Source: an uncultured Candidatus Binatia bacterium
GTDB taxonomy: Bacteria > Desulfobacterota > Binatia > Bin18
Direction of reading: 5' to 3'
DNA length: 64,000 bases
Assembly (NCBI GenBank): GCA_965214605.1
Contig: OZ243961.1
Location: 3,392,001 to 3,456,000 of the forward strand
The position numbers and the translations under genes were made by a program. The notes beneath the pieces were generated by a model. The model was not told where the DNA came from and searched no databases. It saw only the letters and a list, made by a program, of their open reading frames with translations. Below are positions 1-2,685 of the stretch, one piece after another. Numbering within the stretch: position 1 is the first letter of the stretch; each line of letters begins with the position of its first letter.

Positions 1-1872
1 CCCGTCGCCTTGTGTCCTCTTCGATGCATCTGGTTGTGGAAGGGCTGCAGGAAGACCCTGAGCGAAGTTCCAGTTACACATGTTGTTGGTTACCCCTGAG
101 CGACCTGTAGCGTTGTATTGCATCAGCCACTGGCCGGTCAGGAAGGATTGCTGGACGCCGAACTGCCCGGGCAGGATGCGTGTCCAGCCCATGCCGGGGT
201 AGCTCATCAGGGACTGGATCAGGTCAAACCCGAACATGCTGCGCCACACGGCACCGCTGTTCAGGATCCGGCCCCGGCGCCGAGCGCGGGAGTTAGGATC
301 TGCCTCTCCGTTGATTGTCACGGTCTTTTTGTTCAGAGCTTCTTTGGTGCTGTAGCTCTGCTCTAGGCGGAACACTGCCCCGGTGTAGTCGAAGTCGTTG
401 TAGGTCATGGTAAAGCCGACCACATTCGAGTAGCGCCGCTGGTGGCTGAAACCGTTGGTGCAGTAGGTAACGTTTGGCCGGGCGGCGTGCCGCTGCCTCG
501 CTGCCCCGGTCGGGAGGCCGTTCTCGTCGAGATGGCGCTCTCCCCAGTTGTAGCCGAGCAGGTCGGTCCCGTGCAGGGCGCCAAAGAAGTTTCCATTAGT
601 CCGGCCGTTGCGGGCCACACCCTGTTTGCCGCTCTCTGACAGGCAGCGCAGCAACCCCTCACGAAAGCTACCGGCGGCCTCAACCGCTGTCCCGTCTATC
701 ATGCCGTCTCCATCCATGTCCGGCCCATACTGACTGAAGTCGCTGACAGTGTTCCCGTTGGCAAAGGTGTAGGGGATGTACATGTAGTTGAGGGAGAAGT
801 CGAGGTTGAAATAAGTGCTGCCGGTAAAGCGGACTCCGGCCGAATGCCAGTGACCTCGGCTGTGGTGATGCGAGTTGCCCTTGGGCAGGTTAACCACAAC
901 GCTCGTGCGGTCCATAGGCACGTCGGCCGCACACCGGGCGTTGGTCAAACACAGGAAGTCGACCGAGTCGGTTCTGGCGTTGTTGCCGGTGATCTGGAGC
1001 GACCAGGGATGGTCAGAACGCCGGCTGCCAATCCAGGCCGGTCGGTAGGGCAGCATGCGGATTGTTCCGTCGGACCCGACCGTTCCGCAGTCGTCGACAG
1101 ACCAGTCATAGTACATCCCGTCCTTTTCACAGCCGCGCACCTGAAACTGATTCCGCCAGCCATCTTCGAGTACCAAGTCAGTCGCACCAGTGCGGTATTT
1201 GGGGGTGTAGAATGCTTCCACACCTGCCCCCGAAATCCAGGTGCCGATGTTACCGATGTCGTAGAGAGCCTTGAGGGCCAGAATTGGGCTGCGAAATTCG
1301 TCGAATTTCTCACCCACCCCAAAGTTCTGGTCAATCCGTAATGGGTTGACAATATCAATAGAGCGGAACAGGTCAGACTCACCCCACACGATCTGATGAT
1401 ACCCCCAACGGGTGAACAGCTTGCCCGGCCCGATATAGCCGTGGTCAATATCGACGTACAAATCCCGAAAGCCATTCTCCGGCACCAGCCAGTTCTGGGT
1501 GTGCTCTTCGTCGTACAGGTCTTTGTAGTGGTCACGAATCACATAGACCGGATCAACCCGTGAACGCCAGCGGGCACTCAGCGAGGCGCTTTCCACTGTC
1601 GGCACCGGGATTTCGAATTTGCCGAAGAGCTTGCCCCGGCGGTAAAAATTGTCATAAGTCAGCCAGATAAAGCCTTCATTGCGCCACTGCACCCAGTCGA
1701 AATGGTCGCTGTCGGTCTGAAAAGTGTGACGCATGCGATACCAAGTCTGAAGCTCGATGTCTGGTGCTAAGCGGACCGAAGCCCAGGCGTCCGCGCCCCA
1801 GACAAGCAGTCCAAGGGTGCCTACTAGCACGCCGAGGACGAGACGTTGTCCCAGTGTTGTTATTCTTCTCAT
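1..1872 (-). CDS. DUF1302-family outer-membrane beta-barrel protein (3' end beyond window)
   Basis: Hand translation gives 624 open codons from ATG 1872 (RBS AAGGAGGG) to the window edge. Signal peptide MRRITTLGQRLVLGVLVGTLGLLVWGADAWA and family-like motif QIVWGESDLFRSIDIVNP. Absent from the ORF track because there is no stop in the window. Confidence 0.8.
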   Translation of the reverse strand, partial: MRRITTLGQRLVLGVLVGTLGLLVWGADAWASVRLAPDIELQTWYRMRHTFQTDSDHFDWVQWRNEGFIWLTYDNFYRRGKLFGKFEIPVPTVESASLSARWRSRVDPVYVIRDHYKDLYDEEHTQNWLVPENGFRDLYVDIDHGYIGPGKLFTRWGYHQIVWGESDLFRSIDIVNPLRIDQNFGVGEKFDEFRSPILALKALYDIGNIGTWISGAGVEAFYTPKYRTGATDLVLEDGWRNQFQVRGCEKDGMYYDWSVDDCGTVGSDGTIRMLPYRPAWIGSRRSDHPWSLQITGNNARTDSVDFLCLTNARCAADVPMDRTSVVVNLPKGNSHHHSRGHWHSAGVRFTGSTYFNLDFSLNYMYIPYTFANGNTVSDFSQYGPDMDGDGMIDGTAVEAAGSFREGLLRCLSESGKQGVARNGRTNGNFFGALHGTDLLGYNWGERHLDENGLPTGAARQRHAARPNVTYCTNGFSHQRRYSNVVGFTMTYNDFDYTGAVFRLEQSYSTKEALNKKTVTINGEADPNSRARRRGRILNSGAVWRSMFGFDLIQSLMSYPGMGWTRILPGQFGVQQSFLTGQWLMQYNATGRSGVTNNMCNWNFAQGLPAALPQPDASKRTQGDG

Positions 1873-2430
1873 CCTATACCCTCCTTGAGATCAGGTCTCT
1901 CATGCAAATGCCCTTTTCCTCCATCCTCTTCGCGCGCAGAGAAAATAGCCCTCCTGTAGCTGGGTACCTCCTTTCCTAGATGTGTGCATTCAGCAGGAAG
2001 AATACGCCTGCCCTCCTTCCGTTCGTGCGTGGCTAAGTTGTATCTCCTGCCTCTCAATTGTGAGAGATGCCTCCTGCGCTCTGGCCTTATACAGAAAAGC
2101 GTATCCTTGTGCAAGTTTCTCTCCTGCTTTTTATCCAAGCCGGAAAACAGGGGAATATCAGCGGAGCCCTCATGACCTAGCGGGAATTGGTAGTGTGCCG
2201 GCTTGCTCTGTCGCGGCTTAGGGAGCCTCCTCTACAAAACTCCTAGACAGCCGGTAAGGGCACTTCCGTGAGCTCACACACATCTCTGGGGTCTCTCCAA
2301 TTCCTCCATAGGTCAAGAATTTCAAGCGAGGGTGCAACATACTTCCCCCATGAAGCCTAATCCCCAGACTACATCTGATTCTGGGCTGGCAGCTTACGCT
2401 CATGATTATCCTTAATTGTTCTCCTTCCTC
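1873..2430 (-). promoter_or_regulatory. Long upstream/leader region with an array of AGGAG (SD/CsrA-like) motifs
   Basis: CTCCT on the + strand (AGGAG on -) at 1881, 1951, 1968, 2013, 2044, 2071, 2121, 2227, 2240 and 2421; none in the opposite orientation. Confidence 0.6.
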
Positions 2431-2685
2431 AATGCTCTCTCTGTCTCTTCACCGCGGCGGCGACGCGGACATGGCTCTGCCCCAGGCCGAGCGTCGGACA
2501 AGCGCTTGAGCTGGGCGGCTATGCACTGGTGGTGTCAATCAGATGCGTATGGACGGCGTTAAAGCAGTGGCGCAGTTCGTGCTGCTCAGTACGCAATCCG
2601 CCGAGTTCGGCACGTAGACCCTGCTCGCTGGCAAGGATGACACCGACTAATGACAAGCCCGGTCTCGTAAGCACTTCTTGCTGTT

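Follow-up and report, generated by a model that had tools for sequence, protein, structure and literature searches.

Conserved upstream Shine-Dalgarno motifs in the predicted leader of a DUF1302-like outer-membrane protein operon of an uncultured Binatia bacterium

We analyzed a 64,000-nucleotide stretch of DNA (the window) from an uncultured Candidatus Binatia bacterium, in which an array of AGGAG motifs lies upstream of a gene for a DUF1302-like outer-membrane protein. The array is read on the minus strand, all coordinates are those of the window, and the genome to which the window belongs is referred to as G000 (4.37 Mb, 58% G+C, 99.99% complete). The DUF1302-like gene runs past the window start and encodes a full protein of 738 aa with a signal-peptide-like N-terminus. 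Its family assignment is weak, since the 624-aa part within the window matches Pfam DUF1302 at E 2.8e-7 and the full 738-aa protein matches no family at E up to 0.001. The gene is the first of an operon that continues, outside the window, with a BNR/Ycf48-like gene and an MMPL/RND gene (family matches PSII_BNR and MMPL), and orthologues occur in 51 of the 55 genomes of the family. In Pseudomonas, DUF1302, BNR and RND genes show cofitness, according to a preprint (bioRxiv 10.1101/2020.07.04.188060). On the 5' side, the minus strand carries the 3' end of an ABC-2/GldG-like/DUF4340 operon, whose last ORF (183 aa) occupies 3237-2686. A 51-aa ORF that may be a decaying gene in G000 takes up 2519-2674, so that the true intergenic space is 1873-2518. 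Small ORFs homologous to it are found upstream of DUF1302-like genes in relatives, with two to three tandem copies in G006. The features of the locus are as follows.

1-1872, minus strand: 5' part of the DUF1302-like outer-membrane protein gene (ORF; Pfam DUF1302).
1879-1887, minus strand: true Shine-Dalgarno (SD) sequence CAAGGAGGG, 6 nt before the ATG (1872-1870); conserved in at least 8 of the 9 rows of alignment A1.
1949-1956, minus strand: orphan SD number 2, CAGGAGGG, 83 nt before the ATG; conserved in the genus, with no start codon at +3 to +12.
1966-1975, minus strand: orphan SD number 1, GAAAGGAGGT, about 100 nt before the ATG; exactly complementary to the 16S tail over 10 nt, conserved family-wide, with no start codon behind it.
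2011-2018, minus strand: orphan SD-like site AAGGAGGG; GGGAGGG in relatives, absent in G006 and G007.
2044-2048, minus strand: AGGAG within GCAGGAGA; specific to G000, relatives having GGCAGGGAAT or GGCAGGGGGT.
2051-2066, minus strand: hairpin CTCTCA-caat-TGAGAG; specific to G000, relatives being able to pair AAGAGA with TCTCTT.
2071-2075, minus strand: AGGAG within GCAGGAGG, at about +5 of the predicted transcript; specific to G000.
2086-2114, minus strand: promoter-like TTGCAC-N17-TATAAG; an invariant block in the genus alignment.
2115-2518, minus strand: spacer unique to G000, with four non-conserved AGGAG (2121, 2227, 2240 and 2421) and no match in relatives.
2519-2674, minus strand: 51-aa ORF, a shortened homologue of the relatives' small ORF (tblastn against relatives' loci, E 1.4e-12; DNA match).

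AGGAG starts at ten minus-strand positions (1881, 1951, 1968, 2013, 2044, 2071, 2121, 2227, 2240 and 2421), and the plus strand has none before 3925. This recount agrees with the original prediction, which had reported ten copies in about 550 bp, seven of them within 1881-2125, and none on the opposite strand; the octamers that it quoted are also present in the sequence. Its estimate that chance would give fewer than one copy per strand is right for the genome-wide rate (1.10 per kb per strand, or 0.6 expected in 558 nt) but too low for the local composition. Because the span is purine-rich (sense strand A 27.6%, G 30.1%; G/C ratio about 1.5), its dinucleotide-preserving shuffles contain 2.67 AGGAG on average, and ten copies were reached by 1 of 5000 shuffles. 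The density of AGGAG was then ranked in 550-nt sliding windows across the whole assembly, a comparison close to the intergenic count that the original prediction had proposed, and the array is unmatched outside CRISPR arrays in G000: all other windows with at least 9 copies are CRISPR arrays, and the next non-CRISPR windows hold 8 and 7. The DUF1302-like gene is also the sole outlier among 913 SD-led gene starts (crude calls), with 6 five-mer clusters and 4 six-mer clusters between -250 and -21, compared with 4 and 2 for the next best. The AGGAG enrichment is real and unique in G000.

The ranking brought up a few other loci. The large CRISPR array at 3.923-3.928 Mb of contig C1 and on contig C2 accounts for the other top windows, because its 37-nt repeat contains AGGAG. 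A CRISPR-like array at about 612.9-613.7 kb of contig C1 has the repeat CCAGTTCTGAAGGGGAATTAGAGG and carries one 20-nt spacer in about 10 identical consecutive copies. The second-densest non-CRISPR cluster, at about 3,133,977 of contig C1, has 8 copies in 550 nt and extends from upstream of a gene start into it.

The array is not one unit. The genus alignment contains an invariant block, GAAACTTGCACAA...GCGCTTTTC.GTATAAGGC, which we read as TTGCAC-N17-TATAAG at 2114-2086, and conservation breaks off sharply just upstream of it. DNA matches to the spacer are found in 6 of the 7 same-genus genomes, covering only about 2154-1879 and lying directly upstream of the orthologue. This motif recurs 130-349 nt ahead of the orthologue ATG in genera g1, g2, g3, g5 and g10, with variants in g4 and g8, and occurs only two to three times in the whole of G000. 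A generic sigma-70 scan missed 2114-2086, since its -35 hexamer agrees with the consensus at 3 of 6 positions; it did flag an unconserved promoter-like site at 2432-2405 and a plus-strand terminator-like site inside coding sequence. Going by the alignment, 2114-2086 is probably the conserved sigma-70-type promoter of the operon, and we infer a transcription start near 2079-2082 and a predicted leader of about 207 nt. The sequencing runs listed as containing this DNA are five from 2 studies, all of DNA or of unspecified type and none of RNA, which makes the start, the leader and its abundance predictions.

This promoter splits the array, leaving four AGGAG upstream and six in the leader. The predicted leader (1873-2079) has its six copies against a shuffle mean of 1.23, and 2 of 5000 shuffles reached six. 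The four copies in 2115-2518 compare with a shuffle mean of 1.58, and 315 of 5000 shuffles reached four, which is not significant. This part of the spacer further contains the promoter-like match at 2432-2405 and an unconserved 61-aa ORF (2218-2403) that has no homologue in the fetched loci. The four upstream copies are most likely due to chance in purine-rich spacer DNA. The proposal of a multi-SD leader is thereby reduced but survives in part: six motifs lie in the predicted leader behind a conserved promoter, and two orphan sites and the true SD are conserved, whereas the four motifs upstream of 2114 are neither conserved nor above local chance. Three other candidates were rejected. An ECF-type promoter (GAAC...CGTA, about 2026-2005) has a spacing that is too short by eye and lies in a segment deleted in G006 and G007; GCAGGAG[AG] (2121, 2071 and 2044) was considered as a direct-repeat transcription-factor site, and none of the three copies is conserved; and a dispersed repeat was dismissed, the 813-nt spacer being single-copy in G000.

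We aligned nine leaders, eight from genus members and one from genus g3. Only three blocks of at least 5 columns are the same in 8 or more of the 9 rows: AGGAGGT at 1972-1966 (identical in 9/9 rows), CAGGA at 1956-1952, and the true SD at 1887-1879. Three of the five orphan leader copies in G000 (2013, 2044 and 2071) are not conserved, and the site at 2011-2018 is part of a weak 20-nt direct repeat with the 1966-1986 unit (family D1, spacing 45). The leaders of relatives show tandem duplications and a deletion of about 80 nt, and the distance between the two conserved orphan sites ranges from 15 to 42 nt across loci. Within G000, the only orphan copy with a start codon at SD distance is the AGGAGG at -203 (TTG at +12), which bears out the earlier remark that most orphan copies lack one.

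The 3' end of the G000 16S rRNA is GGATCACCTCCTTTCT, and GAAAGGAGGT at 1975-1966 is its 10-nt exact complement. Across 29 orthologous loci from 8 genera, 28 of which had enough upstream DNA to be counted in bins, a strong SD hexamer falls in the bin from -81 to -155 in 18 of 28 loci and 6 of 8 genera; the other bins contain one in 0-5 loci, and the antisense strand in 0-4. In 14 of the 29 loci, exact complementarity between the orphan site and the 16S tail extends over 9-12 nt; the true SDs reach 5-8 nt. With the 16S tails of relatives taken as equal to that of G000 and G.U pairs allowed, a complement of 9-13 nt is present between -86 and -153 in 25 of 29 loci, a count that overstates independence because the loci are kin. 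For 24 of these 25 sites, at most 5 of 300 shuffles reached an equal match. All six g8 loci carry the site when G.U is allowed (GGAAAGGGGGTGA), and it was not found in the remaining four of the 29 loci (L027, L028, L031 and L033). This orphan site is kept across the family. A 10-nt complement is not rare within a single genome, G000 holding 46 complements of at least 10 nt (one of them the 16S gene and most in coding sequence), and the argument therefore rests on conservation.

None of the 29 loci has an ATG, GTG or TTG at +3 to +12 behind the orphan sites at -83 to -153. Extended 16S pairing at a place where translation cannot start is what defines an upstream, or orphan, SD. In sequence terms, the site is an SD-like complement of the 16S tail that lies inside a predicted 5' UTR and lacks an initiation signal, as STAB-SD sequences do, and it is also a conserved SD-like motif far upstream of the translation start, as in the upstream ribosome-binding sites (uRBS) of E. 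coli. What appears to have been selected in the leader are linear motifs that can pair with the 16S 3' tail, set in a purine-rich sequence that shows no conserved fold.

Could the motifs be there for no specific reason? In a purine-rich, C-poor leader, composition and copying by small tandem duplications might yield AGGAG, an explanation that we regard as improbable. Local dinucleotide content does lift the expected count from 0.6 to 2.7, conservation is lacking for three of the six copies in the leader and for all four upstream, the weak 20-nt direct repeat carries two of the sites, and relatives have both tandem duplications and the deletion of about 80 nt. Composition itself may also have been selected, for example against Rho loading on untranslated RNA, and G000 encodes Rho and has a sense-strand G/C ratio of about 1.5. 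These processes do not readily produce the observed count, however, which so few shuffles of the span or of the leader attained. Nor do they explain why SD motifs are the only conserved islands in a fast-changing leader, or why one site keeps its position and its extended 16S complementarity family-wide.

Another reader than the ribosome is slightly less probable still. The motifs are conserved and strand-specific and 30S binding is a prediction here; they might serve as a transcription-factor operator downstream of the promoter, as a site for an RNA-binding protein, or as the target of an sRNA with a CCUCC seed. The variable spacing of the two conserved sites argues against a dimeric operator and is more in keeping with RNA motifs that act independently than with an operator fixed in the DNA. 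In addition, some 100 nt separate the conserved site from the promoter, a search of G000 did not find Hfq (for which reason (ARN)n binding by Hfq was likewise discarded), and the conservation tracks the 16S tail over 9-13 nt.

It seems very unlikely that the upstream SDs serve instead to translate a regulatory upstream ORF or leader peptide through which the operon would be controlled by coupling or attenuation. In G000, one frame is open through the whole leader, forming an 89-aa ORF (1869-2138, minus strand) that includes the TTG found 12 nt beyond the AGGAGG at -203 and whose TGA shares an ATGA with the DUF1302 start codon. In relatives, this picture dissolves: the conserved orphan SDs have no start codon behind them in any locus, the open frame differs from one relative to the next and none is open through all of their leaders, and no frame at all is open through the leader in L018, L019, L021, L022 and L024. 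Indels between leaders do not come in multiples of three, and the ATGA overlap is absent in relatives.

We give marginally less credence to a structured cis-regulatory RNA (a riboswitch, a thermometer or an SD-sequestering switch), in which the SD-like tracts would pair with the pyrimidine tracts CUUCCUGC and UUUCUCUG. Hairpins can indeed be drawn, and the three that the original prediction had described as interleaved with the motifs exist as sequence, but the fold, RNAalifold and the alignment lend them no structural role. Two of them (2051-2066 and 1887-1899) are specific to G000 in the alignment. The third, the GCAGG...CCTGC pair, is partly kept in 5 of the 7 same-genus leaders aligned; in L018 and L019 its pairing is disrupted, and G006 and G007 have lost it by deletion. 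Folding energy does not set the weakly structured leader apart from its shuffles (z +0.28; 111 of 200 at least as stable). RNAalifold on the nine leaders gave 3 pairs at -0.97 kcal/mol with no covariation or compensatory change, and no conserved structure, including over the true SD. A search of Rfam at E up to 10 returned nothing but two chance snoRNA hits outside the leader (E 0.93 and 1.5), which fall far short of their gathering scores.

The original prediction had also raised a cis-encoded sponge RNA that binds CsrA, and asked whether csrA and RNase J are encoded. A search for the CsrA family (PF02599), which detected the positive controls E. coli, B. subtilis and T. maritima, gave no match in G000 or across the eight genus genomes; CsrA turned up in only 5 of the 55 family genomes, which belong to two other genera. 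A scan of the sense strand found no terminator-like site between the array and the ATG. A Csr/Rsm-type element, whether a GGA-rich sponge titrating a CsrA-family protein or a leader bound by CsrA at several GGA, is therefore already largely refuted and the least credible of the explanations: it would account for the many GGA/AGGA motifs on one strand, and for ACAAGGAT and CACAGGAG, which we take to resemble CsrA sites loosely, but no CsrA protein was found in the genomes of the genus, the motifs lie outside conserved hairpin loops, nothing terminator-like defines a separate sRNA, and the conserved motif extends beyond the GGA core as a complement of the 16S tail (GAAAGGAGGTG). G000 encodes both RNase J (530.8 bits against a 400-bit cut-off) and RNase E/G, and RNase J is found in 52 of the 55 family genomes.

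We are left with a reading to which we give moderate credence, namely that this is a leader with conserved upstream SD sites that dock 30S subunits, in the manner of STAB-SD and the E. coli uRBS. The STAB-SD precedent, named in the original prediction, stays the best analogy. The STAB-SD of Bacillus thuringiensis cry3A binds 30S and blocks RNase J1 (PMC4113751), and the 5' stabilizer was studied by Agaisse and Lereclus (1996) and Mathy et al. (2007), as described in PMC4113751. Our leader resembles it in having, in silico, a 5'-UTR SD, some 100-130 nt ahead of the start codon, that can pair with the 16S 3' end without initiation, and in belonging to a host that encodes RNase J. The core motif GAAAGGAGG is presumably common to both. 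Unlike the STAB-SD host, G000 represents a diderm, uncultured lineage (Binatia) that also has RNase E/G. A STAB-SD is a single site near the 5' end of a stable transcript, whereas the sequence of our leader shows two conserved and up to five orphan sites, and the family-wide one lies about 100 nt from the predicted transcription start.

The second close relative comes from E. coli. According to a recent preprint, SDs lying over 100 nt upstream of the start bind 30S there independently of initiator tRNA, and the upstream SD of focA at -213 raised expression about 10-fold (bioRxiv 10.1101/2025.04.04.647229). Common to both cases are a strong, conserved SD more than 80 nt upstream, the lack of a functional start codon, and a place in the leader of an envelope-protein gene. 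They differ in that E. coli is without RNase J and the uRBS effect is discussed as ribosome recruitment; complementarity (9-13 nt) and copy number are higher in our leader than in what is described there, and 30S binding is a prediction. Ribosome standby, as described by de Smit and van Duin and for the MS2 coat and tisB messages, likewise holds a 30S subunit upstream, about 100 nt in tisB (PMC5934652, PMC7708055). The predicted likeness is a 30S held on an accessible upstream stretch, ready for the real ribosome-binding site. A classical standby site is an unstructured tail that makes up for structure in the ribosome-binding site and works without an SD motif, whereas the true SD here is strong and no conserved inhibitory structure was found over it. 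The CsrB/RsmZ sponges and CsrA-bound leaders share the many GGA motifs on one RNA strand; in contrast to them, no CsrA gene was found in the genus of G000, and the locus has no repeated GGA hairpin loops and no separate sRNA unit.

From the 16S pairing, the STAB-SD and uRBS precedents and the presence of genes for RNase J, RNase E/G and Rho, we infer that a 30S subunit could dock on the upstream SDs at 1975-1966 and 1956-1949 without initiating. Once docked, the subunit would protect the long, exposed leader against 5'-end-dependent attack by RNase J and RNase E/G, and could stay on standby near the true ribosome-binding site and feed it. The outcome would be high and stable expression of the outer-membrane protein operon, and the DUF1302-like/BNR/RND envelope operon is probably highly expressed in these organisms. 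The extra copies at 2013, 2044 and 2071 would have arisen as this G-rich leader, prone to duplication, underwent small duplications and changes of single bases, the small duplications and deletions explaining how copies multiply. Being lineage-specific, these copies may be added docking sites or may be neutral.

A bolder version holds that the leader is a multi-site 30S docking strip in which the number of sites, ranging from about one to five between species of the genus with G000 at the extreme, is a tuned variable, shifted by small duplications, deletions and single-base changes. We think this rather unlikely. If it were true, the docking-site count would set the mRNA half-life and the ribosome loading of the outer-membrane operon, and would amount to a ribosome-based substitute for Csr/Hfq-style post-transcriptional control in G000 and its genus; the setting for this version is that CsrA was not found in the genus and Hfq was not found in G000, with RNase J found.

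The kind of element is already known, and the mechanism is not new; this is a well-conserved member from a new lineage, with more copies than usual. A role for orphan SDs in 5' leaders has been demonstrated in Firmicutes (STAB-SD) and, by a recent preprint, in E. coli (uRBS), and the present locus adds a conserved, sequence-based example from an uncultured diderm lineage. The comparative evidence is unusually clear, with SD motifs as the only conserved islands of a fast-evolving leader and one of them in place family-wide, and it lends support to the idea that docking ribosomes at a distance from start codons is a common means of protecting or boosting abundant mRNAs. Our literature search was directed at DUF1302, and no leader is described among the matches listed.

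Four members of the genus have two tandem DUF1302-like paralogues, G000 having a single copy. In the three of them whose upstream DNA was read (G004, G005 and G001; loci L045, L046 and L047), the upstream paralogue has a long leader of its own that contains GAGAAAGGAGGGCAGG. The same three leaders share a CTCTCTCA-TC-GAGAGG hairpin, which echoes the one at 2066-2051 in G000.
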